A stretch of DNA of 64,000 nt. Origin: Nanobdellota archaeon (GTDB taxonomy: Archaea; Nanobdellota; Nanobdellia; Pacearchaeales; GW2011-AR1). Below, piece by piece: positions 5,875 through 39,107 of this stretch. The translations under genes were made by a program, and so were the position numbers. The stretch's first letter is position 1; every line of letters begins with the position of its first letter. The notes below the pieces were generated by a model that did no database searches, had not been told where the DNA came from, and saw only the letters and a program-made list of their open reading frames with translations. The DNA lies in the NCBI GenBank assembly GCA_027858295.1, contig JAQICZ010000043.1, positions 23,699 to 87,698 of the forward strand, given 5' to 3'.

Positions 5875-5928
5875 TTGCCTCGCAGGGTCGGGACTATTTA
5901 TTAAATTATCCGTCGCGCTGCGAGGCAA
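5875..5928 (-). repeat. R1 junction element copy a (perfect 11-bp arms)
   Basis: TTGCCTCGCAG (5875-5885) and CTGCGAGGCAA (5918-5928) are exact reverse complements; AT-rich core ends in ATTATCCGTCGCG. Confidence 0.85.
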
Positions 5929-5948
5929 TTTTTAATTGAATATGATGG

Positions 5949-6764
5949 TTAAACTGCAATTGGACCCTTTATGTTCGGATGGGCAATATAATCTACCAAT
6001 TCAAAATCTTCAAATTTAAAGTCGAATATTGATTTGATAGATGGATTTATTTTCATCATTGGAAGTGGATATGGCTCTCTTGATAATTGCAAAGTCACTT
6101 GCTCGATATGATTTGAATAAATATGGGTATCACCTAAGGTGTGAACGAATTCACCTAATTCTAAATTACAAACTTGCGCCATCATCATTGTTAGTAGCGC
6201 ATATGAAGCAATATTGAATGGCACACCTAAAAAAGTATCGGCAGACCTCTGATAAAGCAGACATGAAAGTTTTCCATTTGCGACATAGAACTGGAAGAAT
6301 GCATGACAAGGTGGCAGATTCATATTCGGAATATCTGCAACATTCCAAGCACTTACAATTATTCTTCGCGAGTCGGGATTTACCTTAATTGTATTTACAG
6401 CCTCTTTTATTTGGTCTATACTCCCTCCTTGGTAATCTGGCCAGCTTCTCCACTGATAACCATAAATATGCCCAAGGTTTCCCTCTCTATCCGCCCATTC
6501 ATTCCAAATTCTTACTCCATTTTCTTGGAGATATTTAACATTTGTATCACCTGCCAAAAACCATAGCAGTTCATAGATTATTGATTTTAGGTGAAGCTTC
6601 TTTGTTGTTACCAATGGAAAACCTTCCCTTAGATCAAAGCGCATTTGGTAACCGAATACCGAAATTGTTCCGGTACCGGTTCTGTCTTCTTTTTGCACAC
6701 CGTTTTTTGAAACGTGCTTTAATAAATCTAGATATTGTCTCATTATGTTCGTTTTAATATTCAT
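5949..6764 (-). CDS. thyA: thymidylate synthase (ThyA type)
   Basis: Full-length ThyA motifs: [64 protein letters not shown]; real start may be the internal MRQYLDLL at 6743. Confidence 0.95.
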
Positions 6765-7052
6765 TTAATCTGTCTGCTCTATTTGATTAGGTTCTTTAAC
6801 CAATACAGCCTGCTCCTTTAATACCAAGCTATTTGCAAATGATTCCTGCTGTAGCGATAGGGTCCTGTTAGTAATCTCCTCAGAGTATTTTCGCAATTCA
6901 ATAAGGGATTTGTGAAGCTTCTTTTGTGCTTCGACTAAACTATTTTGGTTTTCCACTGTTGGATTCCGTTTGAACTGAGTGGTATAAACACTTGCTTCTA
7001 CTGCAAATTTTACAGTGGCTGATAGATGATTTGAATTATACAAGTTTTCCAT
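6765..7052 (-). CDS. hypothetical protein
   Basis: 95-aa ORF; its TAA stop (6765-6767) abuts the thyA ATG (6762-6764), suggesting co-transcription. Confidence 0.5.
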   Translation of the reverse strand: MENLYNSNHLSATVKFAVEASVYTTQFKRNPTVENQNSLVEAQKKLHKSLIELRKYSEEITNRTLSLQQESFANSLVLKEQAVLVKEPNQIEQTD

Positions 7053-7286
7053 TTTTCTTTTATTTCGTTTTTTGTGATTTTATTTTCAGGTGCCCCTTTA
7101 TTATTTCAAGGTCACAGGTTTCGTACACTGACTCTAAATAGTCGTAATCATTACAAGTGTCTATGGCTAAAAATATTTGCCACTCAACTTCCTCCTCTTC
7201 TGCTTTTTCGACTGCAGAATTATAATCTTCTATTAATTTATTAATTTATGAGGAAGGGTCGTGTTCCATTCCTTAAGTGCAGAAAA

Positions 7287-7607
7287 TCAGACATCAGGCA
7301 AACCACTTCTATTAGCTTTTAGGGGAACAAGAATGATTCTTCTCATATAAGTTTTAAGTTCTTGTTTTAGGTGTAATTCAAGCTTCTCAATCCCAAGGCC
7401 AGAAGATAAAGCAAACAAAGTGTATTTATCTTTTACCAGCATAAATTCGATAAGCCCCGTTAGGAATGAAAGAGCCAATTCTTTAGTTTGAATTATTGAC
7501 ATAGCATCTCCTATAAATCCTGGATATAATAAGCCAGAATTAACAATTGATTCTTTTGCCCCGTATAAACAAGTTTCGAAAGTCATTTGATTCTTCTTTG
7601 TCATCAT
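7287..7607 (-). CDS. hypothetical protein
   Basis: Track start 7610 is TTG; first ATG at 7607; TGA stop. Confidence 0.5.
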   Translation of the reverse strand: MMTKKNQMTFETCLYGAKESIVNSGLLYPGFIGDAMSIIQTKELALSFLTGLIEFMLVKDKYTLFALSSGLGIEKLELHLKQELKTYMRRIILVPLKANRSGLPDV

Positions 7608-7610
7608 CAA

Positions 7611-8210
7611 TTAACTTTTAGAATTTCTCATTTTGCTAATCCGGGAATCAAGCACTTTATTTAAGTGCCGAGTCACCAGAAAGTTGTTGTTTGCCAGGTA
7701 CCTCGCTTTCAATAAAGAAAGGGTATCTGCAGAATCTGCTGAAATAGTTATAATGCCGTATAAGGTTTCGTCTGAAATCTTCGACCAACTAATTCTCTTG
7801 TCAGTTAATACTAATGTAGCCATCTTGACATACCATCCGTCTCTTATGGCATCCTGATATATATCTCCTTCATTTGAGCCGTAGATACATTCGTATCCAA
7901 AGGTTAAATAATAAATGAATACCATGTTTCTCAAAATAGCATCGTCTTCTTGGAAGTTGAAAATTACCCTATGCACTGAATTTTCAGTTGACTCCAAGAG
8001 AACAAAATCTAAAAGATTTTCTCCTGCCAATTCAAAATTTGGTTTAACTTGGAAATCCAATAGTTTTCTTTGGAATTTCTCAACTATTTGCCGCAATCCA
8101 AAATTCGAAGGGAGTTCTACTTTTGAATTCATTTCATAAAATAGCAATCTCACTTCGTCATCTGTTGGAAATGGCATGAAGATATCTTTTTCTAATATTA
8201 ATATTTTCAT
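7611..8210 (-). CDS. hypothetical protein
   Basis: Track start 8219 is GTG; ATG at 8210 gives MKILILEKDIF; stop abuts the next gene. Confidence 0.5.
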   Translation of the reverse strand: MKILILEKDIFMPFPTDDEVRLLFYEMNSKVELPSNFGLRQIVEKFQRKLLDFQVKPNFELAGENLLDFVLLESTENSVHRVIFNFQEDDAILRNMVFIYYLTFGYECIYGSNEGDIYQDAIRDGWYVKMATLVLTDKRISWSKISDETLYGIITISADSADTLSLLKARYLANNNFLVTRHLNKVLDSRISKMRNSKS

Positions 8211-8366
8211 TTTTATCACTTTTAGGTTAAAATGTCTGTAGATTGGATGCCGAATTAGTTATGATAATAGAACCAGCCTTCGTAAACAAAGCTCTAAATA
8301 CCAGAGAATGTGATAGCTAAGAGCTTCATTTTACGAAGTCCAATCTAACGTGCGTATTAAATAATT

Positions 8367-8699
8367 CTACGTCAAAATTTTACAACCAGAAGTAGGATAT
8401 GTTTGATATGAATAGCCTGAGTCCTCGGCTATCAATTCACTAACAACTAACCCAATTTCCAACTGATACAAAGTTTGCGATGGAGCGGCAAGCTGCCCAG
8501 ATCCTTCTACTGGAATCCAAATCTCACAGTCTTTATACTTATCCCTTTGCTTTTCCGGCCAGTGTTCCAAAGCTAGTTCCATATTAAGGATTTTCATTAC
8601 TTTAGATTCTGGAGAAAGCTCATCTTTGAATTTTTCTGCAACGGCTTTAAGAAGAGAGCATATATTATACCCATTTTCTTTTGATGAATTTTTGTTCAT
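8367..8699 (-). CDS. hypothetical protein
   Basis: 110-aa ORF, ATG start, TAG stop. Confidence 0.5.
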   Translation of the reverse strand: MNKNSSKENGYNICSLLKAVAEKFKDELSPESKVMKILNMELALEHWPEKQRDKYKDCEIWIPVEGSGQLAAPSQTLYQLEIGLVVSELIAEDSGYSYQTYPTSGCKILT

Positions 8700-8737
8700 A
8701 ATCTTACTGGTTTTAATTTAAATAAATTACTTTTAAG

Positions 8738-8959
8738 TTAGAAAGGTAAATCATCCTTTTTATTTGAGAAAGATTCTTCTTTCTTTTTTGTAGTAGGAAA
8801 ATTTACTATTAGATCTGAATAATCGGTATCTATTTCCACTTCTGGGAGGTGGAATTCGGGATCGAAAAACTCTTGCTCTTGATTTTCGTTATCAAGGGCT
8901 ATTTGTCCTAAACCCAACAAAGGTTTCAGGTAATCCAGCTCATGATTGTTTAAATACAT
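8738..8959 (-). CDS. hypothetical small acidic protein
   Basis: 73-aa ORF, ATG start, TAA stop. Confidence 0.45.
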   Translation of the reverse strand: MYLNNHELDYLKPLLGLGQIALDNENQEQEFFDPEFHLPEVEIDTDYSDLIVNFPTTKKKEESFSNKKDDLPF

Positions 8960-8961
8960 AA

Positions 8962-9132
8962 TTAATCTTCAATTACTTCTGGATTATCTATTCTGTTGTC
9001 TGGGTGAAATTCATCCAAAACATCATTAAGACCTTCATCTACGGGACCATTGCCTACTGGAAAGCCACCGGGCACCCCAGATTCTAGTTCTTGAGCCTTA
9101 AACTCGGCGAAATTAAATTTTTCTTCTACCAT
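8962..9132 (-). CDS. hypothetical small acidic protein
   Basis: Hand-translated 56-aa ORF below the track size cutoff: MVEEKFNFAEFKAQELESGVPGGFPVGNGPVDEGLNDVLDEFHPDNRIDNPEVIED; stop 2 nt from the next ATG. Confidence 0.35.
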   Translation of the reverse strand: MVEEKFNFAEFKAQELESGVPGGFPVGNGPVDEGLNDVLDEFHPDNRIDNPEVIED

Positions 9133-9163
9133 TTGATTTTAAGTTTAATTTATTTTTAATTTG

Positions 9164-10306
9164 TTAAATTGGGGTGTCATTGTCATCCCAATAAGAATGC
9201 CTCCTCTTCTCAAAGGGATTCTCTGGTCGGATATCTTCGTCAATAAATTCTGGCACCGGCTCATCCTCAAGCAGATCCCTTTCTTCAAGAAGAGTATGAC
9301 AATTTTCATCATCAGTTATGAACTCGTCGTAAGGATTGAAACTTGCACCCCATTCTTCAACCGGAAGTTCTTCGGCCTGTTCTGCAGTAGACAATTCCAT
9401 TGATTTTTTTCGAGATATATCCAAGACTTCATTTCCTATTCCTTGATTTGAAAATCCATGAACTCTTTCAAAATAATTATCTGAAAAAGTGATTTGATCT
9501 TCTCCATATATAATAGAGATTATCTCATCACCGGCAAAGTCTCTATAGTTGACTTCTTGACCAATGGAGAAGGTTTTTTCGCAGTCTGTACAAAGGTTGC
9601 CTTTTTTGTCAGCTTGATGATAGCCTCTTTTATTGCAAGCAACACGATTGTCAAGACTCCTCTTGAATCTCATCATACTTTCATCAGTATAAATCCCAAT
9701 TGTTCCATCCGCGTTATAGCCTTTGCCGTCTCCAAAATATTTGAACACTGGCTGTAAAAGCGAGACATTAAAACCTTCCTTACCAGGATAATGATAAGGT
9801 CGACCTAAGGCGTAGAAATATCTGATTCCTATATCTGGAAAATCGATGCCGGCATAATCAGAGAAACCTTCTTTTTCCTCATCAATGTTAAACATCTTTT
9901 CAGAGACAAAAAACCATCCACTCAAAAAATTATCCACACTTAACAAGACCTCATAACCAGAAAACTCTAAAGTCTTCTTGACGTTAAAGCAAACATTCCT
10001 ATCTTCAGCTATAACCGCAATTATGCGGAAGTTATTAACAGATGATAGATAGATTGCTGTTCTAACATACATCCCGGCCCTTGTCGAATAATGAACCAAT
10101 GACTCAACTATGGAAGAGTCTTTTTCTGAAATAAATTCGCCTTTTTTATCTATCCATATTTCCGACAAGGAATTCTCGATATTATTAAGAATTGGTCTGG
10201 GATAATTATCTTCACACAATTTAGTTAATACTACTAACATAGCTTTTATTTTAGGTGTAACACCAACATTTATGGGAATTGTTAAAAAATAATTTAACAA
10301 ATCCAA
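9164..10306 (-). CDS. hypothetical protein with acidic C-terminal tail
   Basis: 380-aa ORF; track start is TTG 8 nt after the previous stop, first ATG at 10240; no family recognised. Confidence 0.55.
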   Translation of the reverse strand: MDLLNYFLTIPINVGVTPKIKAMLVVLTKLCEDNYPRPILNNIENSLSEIWIDKKGEFISEKDSSIVESLVHYSTRAGMYVRTAIYLSSVNNFRIIAVIAEDRNVCFNVKKTLEFSGYEVLLSVDNFLSGWFFVSEKMFNIDEEKEGFSDYAGIDFPDIGIRYFYALGRPYHYPGKEGFNVSLLQPVFKYFGDGKGYNADGTIGIYTDESMMRFKRSLDNRVACNKRGYHQADKKGNLCTDCEKTFSIGQEVNYRDFAGDEIISIIYGEDQITFSDNYFERVHGFSNQGIGNEVLDISRKKSMELSTAEQAEELPVEEWGASFNPYDEFITDDENCHTLLEERDLLEDEPVPEFIDEDIRPENPFEKRRHSYWDDNDTPI

Positions 10307-10314
10307 TTTGTATT

Positions 10315-10838
10315 TTATTGTTTTATTAAAAATTCTACCCGCCTAATACGGTTTGTTATGTCAACAATCTGGAAATCTGGTACATTGACTCCTGCTGCCA
10401 ACATCAAAGCCATAACTTCTTTCAATGACTTTTTCGTATGAATGAAGTATTCAATATTTGCACTAGAGAATATAACATTGAAACCCCATTTATTTGGAAG
10501 TATTCTATCTTGGAATAAAAGATCCAGGATCTCGCGATTAACTTTGGCGCTTTTTTCCAAAAAATTTCGTTGAATTCCAAGAGTGCGACTATGCATTTCG
10601 AACTCACTTCGGAGTTGACATTCGCAATAAAAATCCCAAGATTTTCATCACTTTTCAATTCAGAGGCTTTAATCAGATTGTCTGAATCTATTGCCCAAAA
10701 TTCATATAATTCATTATTATTAATAAATCAATAAACACCTTCTCTTTCTGAAAAACTGAAAAAGATTGTATCTGAACATAGTTCATTAAATAACTGAAGA
10801 AACTCTTGTTTGCTTGTTATAACATATTTATTTTCCAT
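10315..10838 (-). pseudogene. disrupted hypothetical gene (in-frame TGA plus frameshift)
   Basis: ATG at 10838 (MENKYVITSKQEFLQLFNELCSDTIFFSFSEREGVY), TGA at 10728-10730, same frame continues FINNNELYEFWAIDSDNLIK...; the protein-like C-terminal part (10315..10596) is in another frame. Confidence 0.5.
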
Positions 10839-10989
10839 GGGTTTTAATTTTTATTTGACTTTTTTAATTTAATTAATGACTCAGGAGAGGGGGGTTGCAG
10901 AATACTAGATCTGCACCCCACTCAAAAGGAACCTTCTCAGGAAGTCTGTTATTAATTCCAAACTTTTTGTTAGACTATTCCCTTTCTAA

Positions 10990-11412
10990 TTAAGATGGTG
11001 CTTTCTCAATAAAATAAATCTCGGCACCCTTCAGGTGTATTACAGAACTACCCCAATCCTCAAAATCAATTTTCATAATTAAGTCGGGACCTATTAACAA
11101 AGAAAATTTTAAAGATGAGAAAATTATTGGACGGGGGAAGGCTAGCAACTTGACCGTTACTTTCCCATCAATGTCTGTAAACATTGCAACATTTGCCGAC
11201 TCCAAAGCAATTTGACTGCCTCTAAAATCAGCTAAAATCAAACCTAAATTTTTTATGAAAATTGCAGTTGTGCAATCCTCATGAAGAATTCTGGAAATGT
11301 CCCTTATTCCAAGTTTATCATCTATAAATATTGATCCTAAATCTATTCCTTCTCCGAACTCATTTTTCTCGGAGGTCTTTTCTAAGAATTCTTTTAATAT
11401 TTCTTGTGACAT
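10990..11412 (-). CDS. hypothetical protein
   Basis: 140-aa ORF, ATG start, TAA stop. Confidence 0.5.
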   Translation of the reverse strand: MSQEILKEFLEKTSEKNEFGEGIDLGSIFIDDKLGIRDISRILHEDCTTAIFIKNLGLILADFRGSQIALESANVAMFTDIDGKVTVKLLAFPRPIIFSSLKFSLLIGPDLIMKIDFEDWGSSVIHLKGAEIYFIEKAPS

Positions 11413-11463
11413 GTCATTTCTCCTTTATACGATTTCACTTTTATTTATTTGGAAATTCCTCGG

Positions 11464-11715
11464 TTATAGATTTTTTCTACCCGATACTGTTAATGTATAA
11501 TATTGGGGGTCTTCAATGTGAACTTTTTTTTCTTTTCTAAAAACACCCTTTGACATAAGGCCTTTTACTTCTTCGAATCGGCCTAACTTCTTTATTTGCT
11601 GGGCACTCATCCTTTTTTCTTTGCCCATCTTTTTCAATAAGGCTACTTCTTTAACTGTTAAATATACTGTAAATCTACTCTCACTACTACTTCTTCTTGA
11701 TGCTTTTTTTGTCAT
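11464..11715 (-). CDS. hypothetical small basic protein
   Basis: 83 aa, K/R-rich; nucleic-acid binding is only a guess. Confidence 0.5.
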   Translation of the reverse strand: MTKKASRRSSSESRFTVYLTVKEVALLKKMGKEKRMSAQQIKKLGRFEEVKGLMSKGVFRKEKKVHIEDPQYYTLTVSGRKNL

Positions 11716-11761
11716 CTTTTTTAGTTTTATTAATTTGACTTAATTATTTATTTTAAAAAAG

Positions 11762-11800
11762 ACCACCCCCAGTCGATTAGTCGATTTTCTTGGGGGTGGT
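11762..11800 (-). terminator. intrinsic-terminator-like hairpin
   Basis: ACCACCCCC (11762-11770) and GGGGGTGGT (11792-11800) form a perfect 9-bp GC-rich stem; on the minus strand it is followed by CTTTTTT and lies 14 nt after the stop of 11814..12464; the loop holds a direct repeat agtcgatt agtcgatt. Confidence 0.55.
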
Positions 11801-11813
11801 GACTATTAATAGA

Positions 11814-12637: not shown

Positions 12638-13455
12638 TTAAACCTTAACGAGAACCTCTGATTTGCTTAATCTAAACCTTAAAATCTGTGAGTATTGCGG
12701 TATTGAAAAAAACTCCTTACTAGTGGAAGAAGTTTCAAGGCAGAACCCACCAAAAAGGGATGATTCAACAAATGACACCAACAAACCCGTTCCATCAACT
12801 AATGGTTCACCACTTGATGTTATTGAATAGGTTTCACCCTTACCCTCTTTAATTAAAATGTTTTTTATTATTTCCCCCGAAGGCTTTTTTAAGGAACCTA
12901 TAAAAAATAGAACGTTTGAACGCCTTAAGCCCAATTCCTGAAAAATCGCCAATATAGGGGCCCTTCTATTCTCTACTCTTTTTACATTTCTTATTTTTGA
13001 AATGTTTATACTTTCAGAGGCCAAAACCTCGATAACTTCTTCTGAAACAATATTCTCTTTGATCATTCTTTTGTTTTTTAATGATTATACACTTGTCCTT
13101 TTTAATCTCATTCAAGACAGTTGCTAGAAACTGGTTATCTTCAATATCCTTATCATAGCCTTCCATCTCCTTAGGCAGTTTATCGTCTATAGAGACCTTC
13201 AACTTGCCAAGATGTTCTCCTCGAGTTGTCCAGGTCTTTGGATTGCTTTCTCCAAAGATTGCATTAACAAATCGGATTGCGTCTCTTGCGTGCTTGTTTG
13301 GGGTCTCTTGACCATCTTTGAATTTATCAAGTTCTTCAAATATTACTTGTGGTAATATTATGTCGTTTCCTTCAAAACCGTAAAGCGACATAGGGTCATG
13401 TAATAGAACATTTGTATCTAATACGAATGTCTTCTTCTTACTTTCTAGGGTTCAT
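12638..13455 (-). pseudogene. PhoH-type PIN-domain nuclease gene, frameshifted
   Basis: ATG 13455 gives MNPRK then TAA. One frame over reads KKKTFVLDTNVLLHDPMSLYGFEGNDIILPQVIFEELDKFK...ARDAIRF...DNQFLATVL (PIN signature). A single extra T (A at 13440 on the + strand) accounts for the shift. A second frame change lies near 13014-13066. Confidence 0.6.
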
Positions 13456-13484
13456 TTCTATTGGGCTTTAACTGTTAAAATATC

Positions 13485-13564
13485 TACTTTTATTCGCTAG
13501 ATAACTCCGTTACACTAAGGAGATTTGTTTTTTACTTTCATAATTTTTGGTTTTATGTTAATAA
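13485..13564 (-). repeat. R2 junction element copy a (micro-ORF MKVKNKSP)
   Basis: About 75 nt shared with 15107-15190. On the coding strand: stop codon, TTATTAACATAAAACCAAAAATT, then ATGAAAGTAAAAAACAAATCTCCTTAG. Confidence 0.75.
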
Positions 13565-14104: not shown

Positions 14105-14157
14105 CTTTAGTCTTTTTAGTTTACTAATCTCCTATTATATGCAATGTACTCTTTTGG

Positions 14158-14208
14158 GTTTACGGTGATTTATTTTTCTCTTTCATTTTTTTGATTTTAT
14201 GTTAATAA
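14158..14208 (-). repeat. R2 junction element copy b (micro-ORF MKEKNKSP)
   Basis: Shares gattttatgttaataattaa and the ATGAAAGAGAAAAATAAATCACCGTAA micro-ORF with copy a; begins right after the stop at 14209-14211. Confidence 0.65.
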
Positions 14209-15081: not shown

Positions 15082-15106
15082 TTTGTTTTTGTTTTATGGT
15101 TAAATT

Positions 15107-15190
15107 AACTCCTTTTATTCGCTAAATAACTCAGTTACACTAAGGGGGTTTGTTTTTCACTTTCATTTTTTTTGGTTTTGGTTTTAATTT
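15107..15190 (-). repeat. R2 junction element copy c
   Basis: cttttattcgctaaataactcagttacactaagggggtttgtttttcactttcat matches 13485-13540 apart from a few substitutions and one indel; micro-ORF here reads MKVKNKPLSVTELFSE. Confidence 0.75.
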
Positions 15191-15208
15191 TAATATTTTT
15201 TTTAGAAA

Positions 15209-15263
15209 TTACCTCGCAAGCTCAGTATTGATAAGTTGAATTATCCACTGCGTTGGCGGGCAA
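15209..15263 (-). repeat. R1 junction element copy b
   Basis: TTACCTCGCAAGC ... TTGATAAGTTGAATTATCC ... GCGTTGGCGGGCAA; arms are imperfect inverted repeats. Confidence 0.7.
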
Positions 15264-17556: not shown

Positions 17557-17597
17557 CTTATTTTAATTATTTGTTTTTGATTAATACTTTGTTTTTA

Positions 17598-17654
17598 TTG
17601 CTTGCCGCGAACCGTTGACGGTTGACTGTCTACAGCTTACGGTTGACGGTTGGC
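17598..17654 (-). repeat. R3 junction element copy a (TTGACGG heptamers)
   Basis: attgcttgccgcgaaccgttgacggttgactgtctacagcttacggttgacggttggc, about 42 nt upstream of the ATG at 17556; contains the palindrome AACCGT-TG-ACGGTT. Confidence 0.85.
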
Positions 17655-17745
17655 GGGAAAGTGTTGGGTGCTGCTTTTGGGGCTAACATAAATGTGCCTA
17701 CCAGTAGTTTAGAACTAACTGGCAGGACTTAGAGATTGTGGGGAG

Positions 17746-19098: not shown

Positions 19099-19143
19099 TT
19101 GTTTATTCTTTAAATTAATAATTGTGTTTTATTTTTATTTTGA

Positions 19144-19201
19144 ATTGCTTGCCGCGAACCGTTGACGGTTGGCTGTCTACAGCTTACGGTTGACGGTTGG
19201 C
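19144..19201 (-). repeat. R3 junction element copy b
   Basis: All but one position identical to copy a; about 46 nt upstream of the ATG at 19098. Confidence 0.85.
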
Positions 19202-19417
19202 TGTCGGTCTCTTGTGAAAAGCTGAATTTCCCTTAAAACTCTCCGACTCCAGGACAGATGAGTTTTATCCATGACGATTCTTTTTTTATGGTTTTTTACT
19301 TGAGCGAAGACGGGAAATATTGTCTCGCCTTTCGCTCGATTACTTGTTTTGATTCATTATCTCTAGCTGTGCTGGTAGATAATGATTGAAACTTCGGATA
19401 CAAATATCAGCTAATTG

Positions 19418-20155: not shown

Positions 20156-20201
20156 AATAGAATCTCCTTTTAATTTTAATTTATGTTTGTTGTATTTTAC
20201 C

Positions 20202-20251
20202 CAGCTGCCAGCTAGCGGATTGCTAAGTATATTATCCGCTGCGCTGGCGAG
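20202..20251 (-). repeat. R1 junction element copy c
   Basis: CAGCTGCCAGC ... TATATTATCCGCTGCG ... GCTGGCGAG, about 47 nt upstream of the ATG at 20155. Confidence 0.65.
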
Positions 20252-20309
20252 ACATGTAAAGTGCTTCTTTTTACAGAGAAGTTTATAGTATTATTGTTTA
20301 TTAGAAAAA

Positions 20310-20839: not shown

Positions 20840-20895
20840 TTCCCTCGCAAACTCGTGGATTTGATAAATTTTATTATTCGCTGCGCTGCGGGCAA
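20840..20895 (-). repeat. R1 junction element copy d
   Basis: TTCCCTCGCAA ... TTGATAAATTTTATTATTCGCTGCG ... CTGCGGGCAA, then AGCTACT; about 48 nt upstream of the ATG at 20792. Confidence 0.7.
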
Positions 20896-23231: not shown

Positions 23232-23589
23232 TTCTCCCAATTTTGACCAAAAATACAATTATTTCTAAATCTCAACATAACTTACATAACCTGAAAAAAT
23301 TGTTCGCTCCGCTCATATAAATTTTGAATTATCGCCGGTGGCAGATGCAAATAGTGTAAATTATTTTTTCAAAATTGATGCTATTTTCTGTTTGAAATAT
23401 AATATTTGCCTCTATACAAAAATGCCGCAGATTTTTTGGCACGACATATACCCAGAGCGAATGTCATAAGGAGTCGATAATTAAAGTGTCTTTATTCTGA
23501 GCTGTAGCGAAGGTCTTTTTTATCTTTAATGAGCTAATGTTGCTAAATATCAATGAATTAAACTTTTGAGTTAGTCAAAATTGGGAGAA
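23232..23589. other. segment flanked by 16-bp perfect inverted repeats (candidate invertible switch or MITE)
   Basis: TTCTCCCAATTTTGAC at 23232-23247 and its exact reverse complement GTCAAAATTGGGAGAA at 23574-23589 (19 of 20 if extended); the enclosed 326 bp contains R1 copy f. Confidence 0.8.
23303..23349 (-). repeat. R1 junction element copy f
   Basis: TTCGCTCCGCTCA ... TTTTGAATTATCGCC ... GGTGGCAGATGCA; same orientation as the other island copies. Confidence 0.65.
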
Positions 23590-33000: not shown

Positions 33001-33516
33001 TTATTTTTTATTTGCTCCGATAAACCCTTCGGAAACATGATAAGTTATTCCATTACAAACAACCTTTGAGTCAAACCCAGAACCTATACTCAGAACTTCG
33101 TAACCCTTTGCCCTGAATGAGACACAAGCGGAGTCCAAGTTTTCTTTAGATATTTTTCTTGCGTTGTCGTATTTTGATATAGATAAGGCTCCTCTGTGAT
33201 CGAAGACGGTTTTTGCGTTTGCTGAATCTGACCTTACAATCTCAACCATATAAGATAGGGTTATATATCCGGCTGGGGAACATTCTAGATTAACCTCTGG
33301 CCAGCTATACTCTGCTGGATAAAGACGTTTTAATTCGTCACCAACTTTTGCCGAGAAAACGTTTGCAACTTTATGCAAATTATCTCCATTATTGTTTTTG
33401 GCTGTTCTTGATACACTTACCGTTGTTAGCACTTGGGCATCTTCTGTAAATACTTGGGCACTTACAGTGAAGATTAAAGCCAAGATTATAACTGATGTTA
33501 ATATTAATTTTTTCAT
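33001..33516 (-). CDS. hypothetical secreted protein
   Basis: 171 aa; signal peptide MKKLILTSVIILALIFTVSAQ. Confidence 0.6.
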   Translation of the reverse strand: MKKLILTSVIILALIFTVSAQVFTEDAQVLTTVSVSRTAKNNNGDNLHKVANVFSAKVGDELKRLYPAEYSWPEVNLECSPAGYITLSYMVEIVRSDSANAKTVFDHRGALSISKYDNARKISKENLDSACVSFRAKGYEVLSIGSGFDSKVVCNGITYHVSEGFIGANKK

Positions 33517-33544
33517 AATCTGTTTTTATTATTATTAATTTTTG

Positions 33545-33626
33545 TTCGCCGTCCGCTCAAGGATTGATAGGTTTAGTTATCGCTCCGGGCGGGGGTGAAT
33601 ATTGTGCTACTGTTTAAAATAGATTG
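33545..33626 (-). repeat. R1 junction element copy g (with TATA-like box)
   Basis: TTCGCCGTCCGCTCAAGGATTGATAGGTTTAGTTATCGCTCCGGGCGGGGGTGAA, then GTGCTACTGTTTAAAATAGATTG; 29 nt from the ATG at 33516. Confidence 0.85.
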
Positions 33627-33722
33627 AAGATTATTATTTATTAATATTAAATTTTTTATGATTTATTTTTTTAGAAATTTACCACTTGTTTTAACTCCTA
33701 GTGGGAAGGAGTTAATAGATAT

Positions 33723-34370
33723 TCAAAAATTAAACACATGCTTTTCGTTTAGTTCTGATATTAATTCATCAATAGCCAAATCTATCCTCAAAGATAGCTC
33801 AAAATATGCATTTTTCTTTTCTGTTTTTATACCTTCGAATACTGATTTAAAGGAAGTCATCATATACAATCTCTGTGTTGTCAATTTGACTCCTCCAGAA
33901 ATGGCTTCTTCAAAACCCTCAAGGTGTTTATTTATTTTACCTTGATACTTTGGCATTCCGAGGGCGGCATACCCAACCTCTTTCCGAATATTCGTCAAAT
34001 ACGCCTCGAAATTATTCGTGAGGGTTTTTTTAATCCAATATCTTGAGGACATTTTAAAATTAAGGTTTTGATTAATTACTAACCCCCAACTACTTGTGGA
34101 GCAGGTTGCAGAGTTCTTACCCCACTTCTTTACGACCCTGCAGTTCCCTGAGGAGACATACACTCCTGGGACAGATAACTGTCTTGAATGTTCTTCTGGA
34201 AAGACCACTAAGCCCTGAGTGCTATCGGCAGGAATAATCTGGTGCCACTTGTTTATTTTGAAGATTGGACCCTTTTCTTTAACTCGTATATAAATCCTAC
34301 CTATTGATTCCTGTATGTCATCTGCAAAATGCAGTATGTTATTTTTTGACTCAATTGTTGTTGCATTCAT
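33723..34370 (-). CDS. hypothetical protein
   Basis: 215-aa ORF, ATG start. Confidence 0.55.
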   Translation of the reverse strand: MNATTIESKNNILHFADDIQESIGRIYIRVKEKGPIFKINKWHQIIPADSTQGLVVFPEEHSRQLSVPGVYVSSGNCRVVKKWGKNSATCSTSSWGLVINQNLNFKMSSRYWIKKTLTNNFEAYLTNIRKEVGYAALGMPKYQGKINKHLEGFEEAISGGVKLTTQRLYMMTSFKSVFEGIKTEKKNAYFELSLRIDLAIDELISELNEKHVFNF

Positions 34371-34424
34371 AATATTAATTTTTTAATTTGTTTTAGAAAT
34401 TATTGTTGTTATCTATAAAATTAC

Positions 34425-34506
34425 TTCTCCCCCCGCTTGAGAATAATAACGTAATGTTATCCCTCAAAGTGCGGGAAAATATTGAGCTACTGTTTTATAA
34501 AGATTG
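34425..34506 (-). repeat. R1 junction element copy h
   Basis: TTCTCCCCCCGCTTGAG...GTTATCCCTCAAAGTGCGGGAAAATATTGAGCTACTGTTTTATAAAGATTG; ends 1 nt before the upstream stop codon (34508-34510). Confidence 0.75.
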
Positions 34507-34507
34507 A

Positions 34508-34873
34508 TTAATGTTTAACTCCACTCTGCCATGCCTTGTATTCTTGATTTCTCTGGTTTTCTTCAGCGCCCCTTTGAAATTGCGCTGTTTGTTCTATAAC
34601 CCACTCTGCATCTTCATATAATTCACTTGGGTATTTTGGACGGTCGGTGAAATATATAGATAATTCATCTTGGGTCATTTCAGCTAAGAATTCTTCGAAT
34701 TCTTGAACTTCCGTCTCGTATTCCTCTTGTAAATTTAGAAAATATTCTGATTGTTTATCTATTGGTTTCTTTCTTAACTCGAAGTCTAGATCAATGTGAC
34801 CTATTATTACTACTCCATTTGCTGAACCGTTTCCACCTTGTGTACTTTGGTTTGAATTATTTGAAATCTTCAT
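34508..34873 (-). CDS. QGGNG-N-terminus family protein 1
   Basis: 121 aa; MKISNNSNQSTQGGNGSANGVVIIGHIDLDFE...; N-terminal module shared with 36462, 38746 and 39128. Confidence 0.6.
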   Translation of the reverse strand: MKISNNSNQSTQGGNGSANGVVIIGHIDLDFELRKKPIDKQSEYFLNLQEEYETEVQEFEEFLAEMTQDELSIYFTDRPKYPSELYEDAEWVIEQTAQFQRGAEENQRNQEYKAWQSGVKH

Positions 34874-35042
34874 AACGTTTATTTTTACTTATGTTAAAAA
34901 ACCAACCCTCCTCAAAAATTAATAAGTTAGGCTGATGAATAGATCTTATTATTAGTTCATATAAATGCCGAAATAAAAATTTATTCCTTTTTTCATAACA
35001 TTTAAACTTTAGTTGATTTTTGAACTTTCTTTACTTAATTAC

Positions 35043-35112
35043 TTCGCCGTCCGCTCAAGAATTGACAGGTTTAGTTATCGCTCCGGTGCGTGCAGGTTTT
35101 GATTACTTCACC
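35043..35112 (-). repeat. R1 junction element copy i
   Basis: TTCGCCGTCCGCTCAAGAATTGACAGGTTTAGTTATCGCTCCGGTGCGTGCAGGTTTTGATTACT. Confidence 0.85.
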
Positions 35113-35187
35113 TAATTTATTGCTTGCGCAGCCTCTTGAGTAATTTAAAGAACGCTGAGGATTTGAGTTATTTTATGTTATTTCTAA

Positions 35188-35577
35188 TTAAAGATATTGG
35201 AGTTGTTTAAAGAGTTCCTCAACTTCCATTATTTCATCATCTTCAAACATTAGGGGCCATTCTTTACGAAGGTTATCGCCGGTTTTTAATTTGCCGTCTT
35301 TTCCTGTGAATTCCCAGGTGTGCCTTACAATAAAAAGGGCGTCCTTAATCATGACCTTTGCCATTAGGTGTCCTTTATTCTTAAACAATCCTTTTTCCTG
35401 TAATTCTTTAACAAAGAATAAGAAATCGACTTCTGCTAGAACAAATTGAGAAACATCGCGGTTTTTGAACATATTATTCAATCCTTCAATGTAGTTTTCA
35501 GCAATTGTTACCAGCTCTTTCATTTTGTCAGTACCACTTCTTTGTACTAATTCTTTAAGTTGTTGAATTTTGTTCAT
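35188..35577 (-). CDS. hypothetical protein
   Basis: 129-aa ORF, ATG start. Confidence 0.5.
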   Translation of the reverse strand: MNKIQQLKELVQRSGTDKMKELVTIAENYIEGLNNMFKNRDVSQFVLAEVDFLFFVKELQEKGLFKNKGHLMAKVMIKDALFIVRHTWEFTGKDGKLKTGDNLRKEWPLMFEDDEIMEVEELFKQLQYL

Positions 35578-35610
35578 GCTGTCCTTTTTTTATAATTAAT
35601 ACTTATTAGC

Positions 35611-35687
35611 TTCTAAGAGAAATTGATAGCTTTAGTTATCGCTTCTGGGCGGGGGGTGAAGATTGTGCTACTATTTTAAATAGATTG
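35611..35687 (-). repeat. R1 junction element copy j (left arm degenerate)
   Basis: AATTGATAGCTTTAGTTATCGCTTCTGGGCGGGGGGTGAAGATTGTGCTACTATTTTAAATAGATTG. Confidence 0.8.
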
Positions 35688-35707
35688 AATACTATTATTT
35701 ATTAATT

Positions 35708-36322
35708 CTAATAATAGTCTAATAATACTTCCTCAATTCTCATTGACAACTTTTTTGCTTCTTCGGACATATAAATCCTTTTGTTTTTTGATAGCAATAA
35801 TTTACTTATTAAATCTATTCCCTTTCTGGTTCCGAGTACCCCTTCTTCATGTGATTGGTATGAACTATACTCCCCTTCTGGTGTTCTATTAAAAAATGTG
35901 CCTTCTCTATTTAGATACACCCTCACACTACTTTCAGAACGACCTGAAGCCTTAATAACTTTATTCTCCGAATAAAGAATGTCTACCGATTGGTCATCTT
36001 TGTATAAATACAACTCCTGCAGAATTAATTCATCTTTAATTTGTCTCCTGAAGACCAGGTGATCTTTATCATTGATATAAACCTCCCAGTATTCTTCGGG
36101 TCTATTAAGATTATTCAGCTGCTGTTCAAAAAAATTGTTTTCTTTTTTGAGACTACTAATTGTCTCTTTGGTTCTCGAATTAATTGAAGTATTTTCCAAC
36201 TCCAATCTTTTCACTGTTGTTTTATATTCACTTACCTGCTTTTCTAATGAAGCAAGTTTTTCTTTATTGCAACTGGTGAGAGTTACTAATAAGATTGCTA
36301 TGGTTACTAATATTGTTTTCAT
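35708..36322 (-). CDS. putative lipoprotein with coiled-coil region
   Basis: 204 aa; MKTILVTIAILLVTLTSC (lipobox-like LTSC). Confidence 0.55.
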   Translation of the reverse strand: MKTILVTIAILLVTLTSCNKEKLASLEKQVSEYKTTVKRLELENTSINSRTKETISSLKKENNFFEQQLNNLNRPEEYWEVYINDKDHLVFRRQIKDELILQELYLYKDDQSVDILYSENKVIKASGRSESSVRVYLNREGTFFNRTPEGEYSSYQSHEEGVLGTRKGIDLISKLLLSKNKRIYMSEEAKKLSMRIEEVLLDYY

Positions 36323-36371
36323 CTTTTTTAATTTTGTGCATTATAATTATTTAGTTAACTTTAAAACATTG

Positions 36372-36450
36372 TTAGCCGTCCGCTCAAAAATTGATAGGTT
36401 TAGTTATCGCTCCGGGCGGGGGTGAAGATTGGATTGCTGCTTGTAAATAT
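36372..36450 (-). repeat. R1 junction element copy k
   Basis: TTAGCCGTCCGCTCAAAAATTGATAGGTTTAGTTATCGCTCCGGGCGGGGGTGAAGATTGG. Confidence 0.85.
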
Positions 36451-36461
36451 TTAAGTGTTGG

Positions 36462-36776
36462 TTAAAATATTAGGTGAAATAATCCAAAATTCATTAGTAC
36501 TGAATAGAGTAAATAAATTAGGATTTGTATTAAATTTATTTTTTTACATTGCAGACAGATGAACAATCCGACTAGAAGGATATTGAAGATTACTCCTATT
36601 AACGGGACCACCCAAGATTCCCAACCATAATCCATTTGACTAACTGATTCTGCTCCCATTGCAAGTACAGAGATTAACATCATTGCCGCAAAAGCTTCCC
36701 AACTTATTTTATGGGCCTTGCTTTTAGAACCATTTCCACCTTGTGGGTTTTGGTTTGTTGTTGAATTTTTGTTCAT
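36462..36776 (-). CDS. QGGNG-N-terminus family protein 2 (membrane)
   Basis: 104 aa; MNKNSTTNQNPQGGNGSKSK followed by hydrophobic helices. Confidence 0.55.
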   Translation of the reverse strand: MNKNSTTNQNPQGGNGSKSKAHKISWEAFAAMMLISVLAMGAESVSQMDYGWESWVVPLIGVIFNILLVGLFICLQCKKINLIQILIYLLYSVLMNFGLFHLIF

Positions 36777-36806
36777 TTTGTTTTATTTTATTATTATCAA
36801 TTTTTC

Positions 36807-36872
36807 TTCGCCGTCCGTTCATAATTGATAGGTTTAGTTATCGCTCGCTGTGCGTGCAGGTTTTGATTACTG
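36807..36872 (-). repeat. R1 junction element copy l
   Basis: TTCGCCGTCCGTTCATAATTGATAGGTTTAGTTATCGCTCGCTGTGCGTGCAGGTTTTGATTACT; 31 nt from the ATG at 36776. Confidence 0.85.
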
Positions 36873-37220
36873 GTTTACAGGTAAAGACTCTTTTCTCTTA
36901 TCTTCTTTGTTCCATTCTATCCAGTTTTTGATATTGATTCCGAAAATTAGAATTGAGAACATTATTATAACATATGATTCCATCATATATCCCATACCTA
37001 GATTGGCGATTATGCCGATACCATAAAAAACAAATGCTACTTTCTTCTTTTTTTTCAAAAGTATTTGTGTGGATAAAATAAAGAATATACTTACAAAGTC
37101 TAGAAAGTGGAATTGGGAAATTTTTTCTTTATGAATCCCTGGAAGAATTTCGAGATAAGCTAAAATGAGTGCAAATGCTACAAAGAGCGTACTTAAGATT
37201 ATTGCTTTTTTCATAATCAT
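36867..37220 (-). CDS. hypothetical multi-pass membrane protein
   Basis: 117 aa; 3-4 TM helices. Confidence 0.55.
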   Translation of the reverse strand: MIMKKAIILSTLFVAFALILAYLEILPGIHKEKISQFHFLDFVSIFFILSTQILLKKKKKVAFVFYGIGIIANLGMGYMMESYVIIMFSILIFGINIKNWIEWNKEDKRKESLPVNQ

Positions 37221-37262
37221 AAATTTTAGAAATTGTTATTATATTATTAACTGTAAAAATAC

Positions 37263-38672
37263 TTATTTATTTATTACATAGGGGCTATTAAGAGCTGTTA
37301 ATTCCCACTGAACTGCATATGGTGTCCATCTTCCAAGGTGAGGATTTTCTGGATGAACTATGCCTGGAGTTTCAGTAACCCTCATTAATTGAGGAATCAC
37401 TTCTTTTGAAATCATCATTGTATTGATTGAAGTATAGAATTTGTAAACTCCATCCTGAGGACCGAAATCCAATACACTTTCAATTTGATGAAGGTTAGGA
37501 TGCGTTTCTTCCACTTTTGGGAAGATCTGTTCATCCTCTGAAAAAAGCACATGAATAAACGCTTCATCTTCTGTGTGTACAAACTCGGTTTGACGTTCTT
37601 TCAGGGTGCTATTTTCTATTTGCGTTTTTAATTCACGTTCTGGTATAACGTGGTAAACAGCACCATCACTTGAATAGATACAGAGAACTTTTGGAATTGC
37701 ATTTTCCCCTAATAATACATTCTCTGCATCAACATCATCTTCGAAGGAGTCCATACTAGAATCATTCAAACAATTGAGGATTATTGGATAAGACTTTACT
37801 GGCATACTTTTCTTATAATACCAATCTTCGTCTCTACTGACATCCTTATCCTTTCTTTTTCCTTTCTTGTTTGATTTAATACTGGCCTCTTTTGATTTTA
37901 ACTCCCTTATCCTCTTTTTGATTACAGGAATTTCTCTCTCCATATATTTATTATGGTAGTGGATGAAATCACCTGCGCGTTCTATGCAATAGAGTAAACG
38001 TTCTATTTCTTTACCGACTTCTTCATCATTAAGAAATTCACTAGATAATTCTTTCAACTTTGATAAATCATTAAGCCTCCAGTTAAATTCTATTAGACTA
38101 GACCTTTCTCTTTTTGCAACCTTTTGCATTCCAAGAATTCTTGTTTCCAATTCCAGAAGTTCCTCCTTAACCCTTGTTTGTTCGGGAGATACAATTCCCT
38201 CTGATTTCAAAACAAATCGGCCCCACCTTTGTTGCGGATTACGAAAGAAGTGATTATACCTTTCTCTATTCTTTCTCATTGAACCTCTTTTATTTAACCG
38301 AGAGATTGCTTCTGCTGAGGGGTTGCCTAAATTAATATTTGTTTCGGTTAATACTCCATCTATTCGTCTCCTGTCGCCTACTTGATATCCATAGGAGAAT
38401 TTTGAATCGGAAACGTTAGCATGTCCTAACATCAATTGTTCCAAAAAATCGTCTTCTTTAAACATTACTTCAGATATATACTCTTCGACTTCATCTTTTA
38501 TCTCTAACCACAATTCATTTAATTGTTTTTTCTTCTCAATTTGTGCAACTTTCTTTTTGACTTCTTCATCTGTGCAATCTGGTCCGAATTCTAATTCCTC
38601 GTATGACTGACGGATATCGTCACTGAATGGAGCTGTGAATTGATTCTTTAGTTGATTCATTATATTATTCAT
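37263..38672 (-). CDS. hypothetical protein
   Basis: 469-aa ORF, ATG start; charged coiled-coil-like middle; no family recognised. Confidence 0.6.
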   Translation of the reverse strand: MNNIMNQLKNQFTAPFSDDIRQSYEELEFGPDCTDEEVKKKVAQIEKKKQLNELWLEIKDEVEEYISEVMFKEDDFLEQLMLGHANVSDSKFSYGYQVGDRRRIDGVLTETNINLGNPSAEAISRLNKRGSMRKNRERYNHFFRNPQQRWGRFVLKSEGIVSPEQTRVKEELLELETRILGMQKVAKRERSSLIEFNWRLNDLSKLKELSSEFLNDEEVGKEIERLLYCIERAGDFIHYHNKYMEREIPVIKKRIRELKSKEASIKSNKKGKRKDKDVSRDEDWYYKKSMPVKSYPIILNCLNDSSMDSFEDDVDAENVLLGENAIPKVLCIYSSDGAVYHVIPERELKTQIENSTLKERQTEFVHTEDEAFIHVLFSEDEQIFPKVEETHPNLHQIESVLDFGPQDGVYKFYTSINTMMISKEVIPQLMRVTETPGIVHPENPHLGRWTPYAVQWELTALNSPYVINK

Positions 38673-38745
38673 TTTTTGTTTTTTAGAAATTTACTTTTGC
38701 TTACTGATTTTCCTATTTTGCTTTTATTAAATAAAAGCACAGGAA

Positions 38746-39003
38746 TTAATTTAAATAACCTTTTGGGACACCAAAATAATAAGTGCTAATTTCGTCTTGG
38801 TCCATTTCAAAGAAGAGCTCGTCAAAGGCTTCCTATTGCTCTTTATATTCTTCCTGGAAACTAATTATTCCCTTTATTGTTTTGTCAATTTCCTTAATTG
38901 GTTGTTTTATTAATTCTAAATCAATAAACCCGATTACTTTTACTGGGGGCAACAAACCATTTCCACCTTGTGTACTTTGGTCTTGATTTGAATTTTTGTT
39001 CAT
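38746..39003 (-). pseudogene. QGGNG-N-terminus family member with in-frame TAG
   Basis: MNKNSNQDQSTQGGNGLLPPVKVIGFIDLELIKQ...SFQEEYKEQ, TAG at 38833-38835, then EAFDELFFEMDQDEISTYYFGVPKGYLN. Aligns with QEEYETEVQEFEEFLAEMTQDELSIYF of 34508..34873, with the TAG opposite Gln. Confidence 0.6.
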
Positions 39004-39040
39004 GTTGTTTATGTTATTGTTAATTTATTTAGAATTTTCC

Positions 39041-39107
39041 TTCGCCGTCCGCTCAGGACTGATAAGTTATGTTATCCCTCGCGGTGCGTGCAGAAATTGA
39101 GCTACTT
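39041..39107 (-). repeat. R1 junction element copy m
   Basis: TTCGCCGTCCGCTCAGGACTGATAAGTTATGTTATCCCTCGCGGTGCGTGCAGAAATTGAGCTACT; 38 nt from the ATG at 39003. Confidence 0.85.

Follow-up and report, generated by a model that had tools for sequence, protein, structure and literature searches.

A family of short intergenic inverted-doublet repeats, possibly recognised by a protein, at the 5' side of genes in a DPANN archaeon

In this study, we analysed R1, a family of short repeats in a 64,000-nt stretch (referred to below as the window) of contig JAQICZ010000043.1 from the Nanobdellota archaeon assembly GCA_027858295.1. R1 is a real, non-random repeat family of approximately 16 copies, each about 50 nt long and all intergenic, and 12 of them lie in an array of co-directional, mostly orphan open reading frames (ORFs). 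In every copy, a ~30-nt unit occurs twice, as an inverted doublet, and R1 behaves as a 5'-side element of genes. Our tentative preference is to see R1 as portable DNA placed at the 5' ends of genes, where a protein would recognise it. By kind, it belongs with the short palindromic repeats dispersed through intergenic DNA, and its host is a DPANN archaeon.

Build, position and favoured reading of R1

A profile built from 12 R1 copies was searched with nhmmer against the window, and every full copy listed in the original prediction was recovered with E-values from 1.7e-16 to 1.6e-6 (matches at 39040, 33544, 35042, 36372, 15210, 20841, 55830-55770(-), 36806, 34424, 5876, 20203, and 23302). Direct reading likewise confirmed all of these copies and made visible the diverged ones at 5875, 15209, 20202, 20840, and 23303 and the inverted one at 55772. 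A repeat search placed the copies between 33.5 and 39.1 kb in families with 60-100% identity. Weaker nhmmer matches were a half copy at 44248-44207(-) (E 1e-5), a truncated copy at 35620-35664 (E 0.002), and a weak hit at 43936-43952 (E 1.3); beyond full, half and truncated copies, the profile found nothing else of note in the 64-kb window. Among the predicted half-copies, 44216 was detected and 43926 corresponds to the weak hit, whereas 21775 is a mere arm fragment that nhmmer did not detect. A scan for copy number and position, which had been proposed with a covariance model for the whole genome and related MAGs, was run with this profile on the window and recovered the family; one extra, diverged copy lies outside it, on the sister contig L029 (20625-20692), between rpoN and a GH3 gene. 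The single orientation claimed for the array copies was found in all 12, and 55772, 44216, and 43926 are inverted.

To read the anatomy of R1, we anchored all copies on TTAT(C), which is invariant. Given in the orientation of the genes (minus strand), the left-half sequence is CAATATTT / GCCCGC-AGCGCAGCG-GATAA(T/C), with a short form CAATATTT-GCCCGCAGCGCAGCG-GATAAT, and the right half, when reverse-complemented, reads AAATT-CCTCGCAAGCTCAGGA-tt-GATAAG. The mean pairwise identity is 0.60 among left halves and 0.41 among right halves. The right half is the looser inverted copy and is consistently 3-4 bases longer, which makes R1 polar. The inner ends of the two halves form a 16-bp dyad, GATAA-N6-(T/C)TATC, whose half-sites are one helical turn apart and which is clamped by the GC-rich arms. 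The left GATAA is present in all copies, and the dyad is complete in about 8 of the 16. The GATAA-N6-TTATC spacing has the geometry of the operator of a dimeric DNA-binding protein. The most conserved part of R1 is the inner end and centre, not the termini. From GC arm to GC arm, 11 of the 13 full or truncated copies measure 49-54 bp, the exceptions being c23303 (44 bp) and c35611 (39 bp). An extra upstream module, consisting of a TATTTTAAAC/TTTATAAAAC box and GTAGC, is found in c33545, c34425, and c35611, and an extra downstream module, an AAAATT-nATAAT stretch, in c33545, c36807, and c39041. Two further interpretations of the element were rejected. The half-sites resemble the TGATAAT/ATTATCA of Fur boxes, but their spacing is about 4 bp too long for this analogy. 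Inspection of the aligned copies also excluded a leader peptide or other coding function, as the reading frames are not conserved.

R1 is assigned to the 5' side of genes because of its short distance from the ATG, its variable distance from the preceding stop, its fixed polarity, and its place in spacers with two hairpins. The distance from the end of R1 to the next ATG is 24-56 nt in 10 of the 12 array copies, in agreement with the original prediction, and a mini-ORF intervenes in the other two. The earlier claim that R1 begins right after the preceding stop codon does not hold, since the actual distance ranges from 0 to 408 nt. At approximately eight independent sites, R1 has the same polarity relative to the gene in all cases. 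In the two-hairpin spacers (33517-33722, 17557-17745, and 19099-19417), the hairpin after the stop is unique and terminator-like, and the one closer to the next gene is R1 or its sister element R2. Most other array spacers of at least 70 nt also contain a unique hairpin.

The place of the promoter is less clear. In about 10 of 13 copies, the GC arm is preceded by a TATA-like box that begins 22-31 nt upstream, and in every copy the start of the arm coincides with a pyrimidine-purine step. The predicted order of TATA-like box, hairpin, A-rich spacer, and ATG fits these copies, but the box can equally be placed after the hairpin. R1 could therefore contain the promoter, adjoin it upstream, or cover the transcript start. 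Canonical archaeal spacing would put the transcription start site (TSS) several nucleotides inside the 5' arm. Promoter placement by TATA-like motif was abandoned as uninformative in such AT-rich spacers; window-wide, TATA-like words peak just 16-20 nt before ATGs. For minus-strand genes throughout the window, the word TT[CT]TAAAA(AA) likewise peaks 16-20 nt upstream of annotated ATGs, which is too near for a canonical archaeal TATA box whether the mRNA is leadered or leaderless. This peak reflects either many mis-called starts or a translation-context or other signal.

Our preference for a protein-recognised module, held with some reserve, is based on the dyad with half-sites one helical turn apart, the conserved ~30-nt left half, the fixed length, the polarity, and the proximity to start codons. 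A protein would recognise the double-stranded DNA in a sequence-specific manner, rather than a conserved hairpin, and the capacity to form hairpins would simply follow from the construction of R1 as an inverted doublet. The promoter or transcript start would then lie beneath, or just downstream of, a factor bound to the dyad and arms, and R1 may thereby bring or gate the transcription start of the gene behind it. Several observations weigh against this interpretation. The right half-site is degenerate in about half of the copies, a loss that a strict dimer operator would not tolerate. Between the hairpin and the ATG, TATA-like boxes of equal quality can be placed 26-30 nt upstream of the start codon. 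Class A copies (-29 vs -15.5 kcal/mol) and R2 (-39 vs -23 kcal/mol) favour folding of the plus (antisense/template) strand, which hints at a single-strand role. In addition, the statistics on position and orientation cover approximately 76 kb of genome. With respect to the portable promoter or leader proposed in the original prediction, portability and linkage to gene 5' ends hold, whereas the promoter is ambiguous by TATA placement and the hairpin is not maintained.

Individual copies, their spread and a selfish-element alternative

All array copies lie on the minus strand. The copy c5875 (5877-5926) measures 50 bp from GC arm to GC arm and has perfect 11-bp outer arms, and the exact complementarity (11/11) claimed for 5875-5885 and 5918-5928 is correct; the z-score of its minimum free energy (MFE) is about -5. 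The thyA stop precedes it by 17 nt, and 33-35 nt separate it from the ATG of o5095-5841, a conserved gene at the far end of the array. The copy c15209 (15212-15261) has a complete GATAA-TTCAAC-TTATC dyad, and an 8-codon mini-ORF leader and then o14716 lie downstream of it. The mini-ORF occurs in three copies on the minus strand (MKVKNKPP, MKVKNKSP, and MKEKNKSP, each followed by a stop; 13392-13564, ~14105-14200, and 15082-15200), which, together with a conserved downstream leader, precede o14716, o13014 (PIN-domain, Pfam E 3.8e-9), and o13565. A strong hairpin with a degenerate right half-site characterises c20202 (20200-20253). The copy c20840 (20842-20893) reads AATAA-TAAAAT-TTATC with GTAGC upstream, and c23303 (23305-23348) is diverged, 44 bp long, and weakly folded.

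The remaining array copies fall mainly into two classes. Class A comprises c33545 (33547-33596; plus-strand fold -29.0 vs -15.5 kcal/mol), whose repeated module reaches upstream to about 33650 and includes the TATTTTAAAC box and GTAGC; c36372 (36375-36423), which matches c33545 with 94% identity across 63 nt and has unrelated flanks; and the truncated c35611 (35619-35657), in which the 5' arm and core are present and the 3' arm is absent. Class B has the 3' arm and core of class A with a different 5' arm, as in c35043 (35045-35093). It also includes c36807 (36809-36857), in which the AGTAAT of the element provides the stop codon of o36867, and c39041 (39043-39091), which reads GATAA-CATAAC-TTATC and is the closest copy to the ATPase end of the array. 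The copy c34425 (34427-34475) has its own arm pair, folds better on the minus strand, and carries a TTTATAAA box 26 nt upstream of the arm. The homology between c36807 and c39041 extends into the N-terminus of the next gene, and the genes behind all three class B copies (35043, 36807, and 39041) have a common N-terminal MNKNS..QGGNG motif, which means that these flanks are to some extent related. The original prediction had described near-identical copies amid unrelated genes; this is true of c33545 and c36372, but the class B copies limit the claim.

Outside the array, an inverted and diverged copy (55778-55829, plus strand) is located in the core genome, in a 590-nt spacer between convergent genes for an RRM protein and uvrB, and is co-oriented with the upstream RRM gene. 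Two left-half singlets on the plus strand, at 44216-44242 (GCTCGCAGCGCAGCGGATAAT) and 43932-43954, belong to units 1 and 2, respectively, of a ~290-nt tandem duplication beside tRNA-Leu. R2 is a sister hairpin family with copies at 17604-17657 and 19151-19201 on the minus strand. Its outer arms are R1-like (CCCGCCAACCG... / ...GGTTCGCGGCAAGCAAT) around a centre of ACGGTTGAC repeats, the first copy lies 45 nt before an ATG, and the plus-strand fold of R2 is far stronger (-39 vs -23 kcal/mol). The centre of R2 consists of ACGGTTGAC-type heptad repeats, and weaker R2-like stretches were seen at 39928-39977, 55315-55364, and 40416-40445. ACGGTT-type repeats are present in spacers of the relative L033 (17198-17526 and 17896-18078) and inside the ATPase ORF.

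A comparison of the copies indicates how the family spread. On its downstream side, c33545 is homologous to c36807, and on its upstream side to c35611. As the blocks of homology thus change to each side of the common core, the flanks assort independently. Near-identical copies form a dense cluster at the ATPase-proximal end of the array, and those farther away are sparser and more diverged. This comparison shows that R1 spread recently within the array and, at an earlier time, into two or more spacers of the core genome, the mechanism being duplication or recombination.

Comparison with relatives shows that R1 is lineage-specific, portable intergenic DNA. No R1 was found in the arrays of the four relatives searched (L027, L028, L032, and L033), which also lack junction repeats, except for unrelated spacer repeats in L033. 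The rpoN-GH3 spacer is 234 nt long with R1 here versus 22 nt without R1 in L028. R1 is likewise missing upstream of the o5095 orthologue in L028, and a homologue of o33723 elsewhere is also without R1. The class A/B core (AYTGAYARSTTWWGTTATCSCT or a 19-mer) was scanned in IMG/VR, GTDB genomes, and JGI metagenomes, and yielded single armless chance matches in unrelated taxa.

The spread of R1 could alternatively be that of a selfish, non-autonomous mobile element without host function, either a minimal miniature inverted-repeat transposable element (MITE) or a REPIN-like doublet with singlets, moved by a transposase encoded elsewhere. We consider this unlikely. The inverted doublets with left-half singlets at 44216 and 43926, the near-identical copies between unrelated genes, and the restriction to one lineage, with R1-free orthologous spacers in relatives (rpoN-GH3 and o5095), are all consistent with it. 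So is the pattern of arm pairing, which remains good in part of the family but has decayed where copies are diverged, as in ageing insertions. The place and polarity of R1 would then come from insertion preference or from purifying selection in very short spacers, and strand-specific single-strand transposition could give the orientation bias. However, Pfam scans including Y1_Tnp detected no transposase, Y1/HUH or other, among the ~70 window ORFs. No consistent target-site duplication flanks any copy, a test weakened by the AT-rich flanks, and conservation is highest at the inner end and centre rather than at the termini.

Two known groups of short repeats invite comparison here. Correia/NEMIS elements are promoter-carrying MITEs of 100-155 bp with a central protein-binding site. 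Like those of Neisseria, R1 copies are short imperfect palindromes in spacers, often directly upstream of genes, with an AT-rich centre resembling a protein site between inverted arms, possible transcript hairpins, and a presence that varies among related genomes. R1 differs in being half the size (~50-75 bp), in having no visible TA target duplication or defined terminal inverted repeats, in its strict single orientation to genes, and in its archaeal host, and an outward promoter is putative at most.

The second group, the REP/REPIN repeats mobilised by RAYT transposases of the IS200/IS605 Y1 type (PMC3733652, PMC3116915), also consists of GC-rich intergenic palindromes that occur as inverted doublets and singlets between unidirectional or convergent ORFs. 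REPs are defined by GTAG (or CGTC) directly at one end of a 20-40 nt palindrome (PMC3733652). In R1, GTAGC is found 9-11 nt from the arm exclusively in c33545, c34425, c35611, c39041, and c20840, and never directly at the palindrome end. While this motif recalls IS200/IS605 and RAYT cleavage sites and would favour a selfish element, it stands apart from the hairpin and is absent in most copies. Furthermore, GTAG-tagged REPs are confined to bacterial phyla in the survey (PMC3733652). The R1 half is not itself palindromic, no RAYT is encoded among the ~70 ORFs, and R1 follows the start of the downstream gene, not the 3' end of the upstream gene.

Folding of R1 and the RNA and recombination-site alternatives

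Folding was examined in 14 copies, which, taken singly, form hairpins that are long but imperfect. Five of them (c5875, c20202, c33545, c34425, and c15209) fold significantly beyond shuffles (MFE z < -2.5), and the stability of the other nine is no better than that of shuffles. The better-folding strand varies, being plus for class A and R2 and minus for c34425. RNAalifold found no consensus structure on a MAFFT alignment of the R1 copies because the arms are out of register. Pairing between cognate arms is only slightly stronger than between non-cognate arms (-14.8 vs -12.8 kcal/mol, p about 0.01), and by an alignment-based measure cognate halves resemble each other no more than non-cognate halves do (0.387 vs 0.369, permutation p = 0.14). 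Some differences between arm families look compensatory, for example, TTGCC/GGCAA to TTCGCC/GGTGAA and TCGC/GCGA to TCCGC/GCGGG. In the main, the sequence of R1 is better conserved than its pairing, and selection for pairing is weak at most. The arm complementarity claimed for the family is thus strong in about 5 of 14 copies, while the others equal shuffles, and the lack of a hairpin maintained across copies weakens the earlier proposal of a structured leader.

R1 might nevertheless act as RNA, in the form of a 5' mRNA hairpin, an intercistronic stabilising or processing hairpin, or a small antisense RNA from the plus strand. This is rather improbable in our estimation. The five highly stable hairpins fit it, as do the paired single-base insertions by which arm families differ while preserving pairing, and the G·U-type pairs that strengthen class A and R2 hairpins on one strand. 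The TATA-like box upstream of the arm in most copies, the pyrimidine-purine step at every arm start, and the unique hairpins of most other array spacers of at least 70 nt are also compatible with an RNA role. Against these stand the absence of an RNAalifold consensus, the weak or absent covariation of cognate arms, the nine copies no more stable than shuffles, and the inconsistent strand preference. Most copies lack a U-tract after the hairpin on either strand, and the TSS expected from general archaeal spacing would fall inside the 5' arm by several nucleotides. Rfam, searched with the window, gave tRNA-Leu as the sole match at the gathering threshold and nothing over R1 even at E < 5. R1 was also rejected as a known RNA family on this ground and by eye, with no C/D-box, K-turn, or bulge-helix-bulge pattern. 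It does not have the form of a usual intrinsic terminator, as the 3' arm is followed by 2-5 A and then merely a short T-run (T2-T6); other array spacers do hold a hairpin with T5-6.

A third alternative, which we regard as very unlikely, is that R1 is a site-specific recombination site at cassette junctions. It would be used by XerA, as a dif-like site in the manner of IMEX or pdif, or by an integron-like enzyme acting on the folded palindrome, and the orphan-gene array would have grown by one insertion after another at the end nearest the ATPase. IMEX and pdif are Xer-dependent modules. The core of R1 follows the dif grammar of 11-bp imperfect inverted arms around a 6-bp spacer (...ATAA, 6 bp, TTAT...). 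The dif oligonucleotide of P. abyssi is ATTGGATATAA-TCGGCC-TTATATCTAAA (PMC2958812), and the core of c15209, compared with it, is GCAGTGGATAA-TTCAAC-TTATCAATACT. The arms match at 6-7 of 11 positions in c15209, class A, and c39041, and the 6-bp spacer is present in 8 copies. Inverted repeats flanking archaeal dif sites have also been reported (PMC2958812). The sole recombinase in view, 279 aa long and 7 kb away (46904-47743, minus strand), belongs to the XerA equivalog NF040815 (228 bits vs a cut-off of 220), is of the housekeeping type, and is below the integron-integrase cut-offs. By contrast with dif, R1 is present in many copies rather than one. Its right arm is degenerate in half of the copies, R2 has no such core, and spacer sequences differ among the older copies. 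The sequences of classes A and B diverge at a point 4-11 nt beyond the left arm rather than within the 6-bp spacer, and XerA and its synteny occur equally in relatives whose variable arrays lack R1.

The layout of the array offers circumstantial support for this alternative. Seven consecutive single-gene units, each bounded by R1, form a tandem array of co-directional short ORFs between 33.5 and 39.1 kb. The array is composed of orphan ORFs and is hypervariable between relatives; the copies are youngest and densest near the ATPase or promoter end and older and sparser beyond, and their flanks assort independently around the shared core. These integron-like features are real. Integrase-free arrays of integron-type attC sites, termed CALINs, have been described from DPANN archaea (PMC9668308), and, like these, the window has co-directional short, mostly orphan ORFs separated by similar imperfect palindromes. 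The sites are alike within one genome, with conserved ends and a variable centre, as between R1 and R2 or within attC families. However, R1 was rejected as a canonical attC site, the type of cassette boundary to which it had been likened: the R''/R' pair RYYYAAC/GTTRRRY, sought by regular expression on both strands within 15 nt of the ends, was absent from every copy (one internal chance match in c15209), MFE folds of the 14 copies have bulges at differing, non-conserved places or none (c5875), extrahelical bases are not conserved, no IntI is in view, the nearby recombinase is of XerA type, and the arrays of relatives at the same locus have no such site. An attC-like or dif-like mode of working is what is left of this alternative, at a low probability.

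The two repeat families might also be taken together. R1 and R2 would then be junction sites of a non-integron archaeal cassette platform, with dif-like cores, GC inverted-repeat clamps, and recombination by XerA, a proposal that we judge to be very improbable. The HerA/FtsK-like ATPase, which has a C-terminal tail resembling a winged helix-turn-helix, and a small 'Recombinase'-domain protein would possibly assist XerA, and the array would take up its orphan genes singly, each insertion occurring at the end next to the ATPase.

The original prediction had expected strain rearrangement breakpoints inside R1. The sister assemblies (99.99% identical) have no rearrangement at R1, which speaks against recombination at the site. 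With a Logan contig included, identity is 99.99-100%, and the sole indel is inside an ORF. Contigs end inside R1 because it is a repeat that breaks assembly. A 2850-nt contig, L037, from an independent run (Logan SRR22875240) is 100% identical to the window at 33570-36419. It starts and ends inside two class A copies with the same terminal sequence; this is the expected repeat-induced break, but an excised circle would give an identical picture.

The hypervariable array and its surroundings

The host is placed among DPANN archaea because of the homologues of the ATPase and the presence of L18e among the neighbouring ribosomal genes. The ATPase has hundreds of homologues at ~70% identity, and the named ones are from Pacearchaeota, Nanoarchaeota, Nanobdellota, or a Diapherotrites archaeon. 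Genes in the window include uvrB, uvrC, HU, and thyA, and an HTH protein is encoded at 51931-52692. A bacterial host (CPR or Bacteroidetes), to which UvrABC and HU could point, was rejected because the ATPase homologues and L18e are archaeal or DPANN. The bacterial-type thymidylate synthase ThyA (5949-6764, minus strand; Pfam E 4e-127) sits inside the orphan-gene array. The in-window part of this hypervariable, co-directional array, which holds the 12 R1 copies, spans 5842-39634 on the minus strand. The whole array covers about 44 kb from the HerA/FtsK-like ATPase to an rpoD/ribosomal-protein block just beyond the left edge of the window. Almost none of its ORFs has a Pfam match. For one ORF searched, no homologue was found among 5.8 billion proteins, and another has a single 32% relative, located in a tight operon without R1.

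The array is bounded upstream by a conserved ATPase of the DUF87 (HerA/FtsK/VirB4) superfamily (40203-42734, minus strand) in every relative examined. We compared the four relatives, whose ATPases are 72-79% identical. All of them have the synteny HAD, XerA, small 'Recombinase'-domain protein, S9/L13/L18e, tRNA-Leu, 152-aa protein, and ATPase, followed by a run of co-directional small ORFs. In the array region, what they share with the window amounts to the ATPase, the 152-aa protein, and the far-end gene o5095-5841, which has 38% identity with a protein of L028. The array locus of the relatives holds 3 to >10 kb of genes unrelated to those here; the run of L028 spans 3 kb and stops at the same rpoD block.

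Several observations concern the proteins of this locus. The ATPase is 843 aa long, 80-190 aa longer than those of the four relatives (672-761 aa), and most listed homologues have ~630-740 aa. It has weak NCBIfam matches to the DNA-translocating ATPases CedD/CedB, a long S/P/T/E-rich linker, and a winged-helix-looking C-terminal tail. From the conserved synteny, one idea is that it could be an FtsK-like partner of XerA. In the window (46336-46923, minus strand; 195 aa) and in L027, L028, L032, and L033, the gene after XerA, overlapping or adjoining it, always encodes a protein of 177-195 aa. The Pfam 'Recombinase' domain (PF07508) matches this protein with 23.4 bits in the window, faintly or weakly in L027, L032, and L033, and not in L028. 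Perhaps the protein assists XerA as an accessory partner conserved across this DPANN group.

Non-coding features of the locus are also conserved. A stretch of 360-570 nt directly downstream of the DUF87 ATPase is non-coding in all five lineages (window 39635-40202; L027:12077-12441; L028:12020-12381; L032:10266-10709; L033:12287-12812) and has GAAATACC...GGTATTTC hairpins in repeated form. Given its place at the head of the variable array, this stretch could represent either a conserved non-coding RNA or a regulatory region. Upstream of the L18e-L13-S9 operon is a conserved leader (window ~44870-44945; L027:9170-9260; L028:9119-9205; L032:7380-7470; L033:7987-8075) with a canonical TTTTATAAAC box and a compensatory palindrome (GAATAAATTTATTC in L027, GAAGTATAACTTC in the window), which makes it a candidate autoregulatory ribosomal-protein leader. 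A relationship between this leader (CCCGCTAACGC...CGCAGGATAAC) and the left half of R1 is unproven, as the similarity is below the nhmmer detection threshold.

Traces of duplication and rearrangement were observed around the tRNA gene. The tRNA-Leu(CAA) gene is inverted in the window (43760-44540) relative to the four relatives. Partial duplicates of the tRNA 5' end (GACCACTCCGGCACAC[C/T]TGCAT or shorter) occur at L028:9219-9412, L032:7476-7590, and L033:8375-8605 and resemble integration scars. At the tRNA-Leu site, each unit of the ~290-nt tandem duplication in the window carries an R1 left half, and L033 has tandem repeats of ~200 nt. Two spacers of the window (44630-44766 and 50420-50761) share a repeat of ~140-340 nt with 91-94% identity, and a contig of the sister assembly ends inside it at 50705.

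DPANN archaea have tiny genomes, yet they carry large blocks of fast-turnover orphan genes, many of which encode secreted proteins or lipoproteins. A portable, orientation-locked 50-bp module before a dozen orphan genes, missing from the corresponding locus of relatives, may provide a handle on the control of their expression or on gene acquisition. If R1 is a promoter or operator module or a MITE, it would be an early DPANN example of such a repeat family in the literature searched; a true XerA recombination site would represent a new cassette system in Archaea. R1 would also be useful as a strain-typing marker and for explaining assembly breaks.

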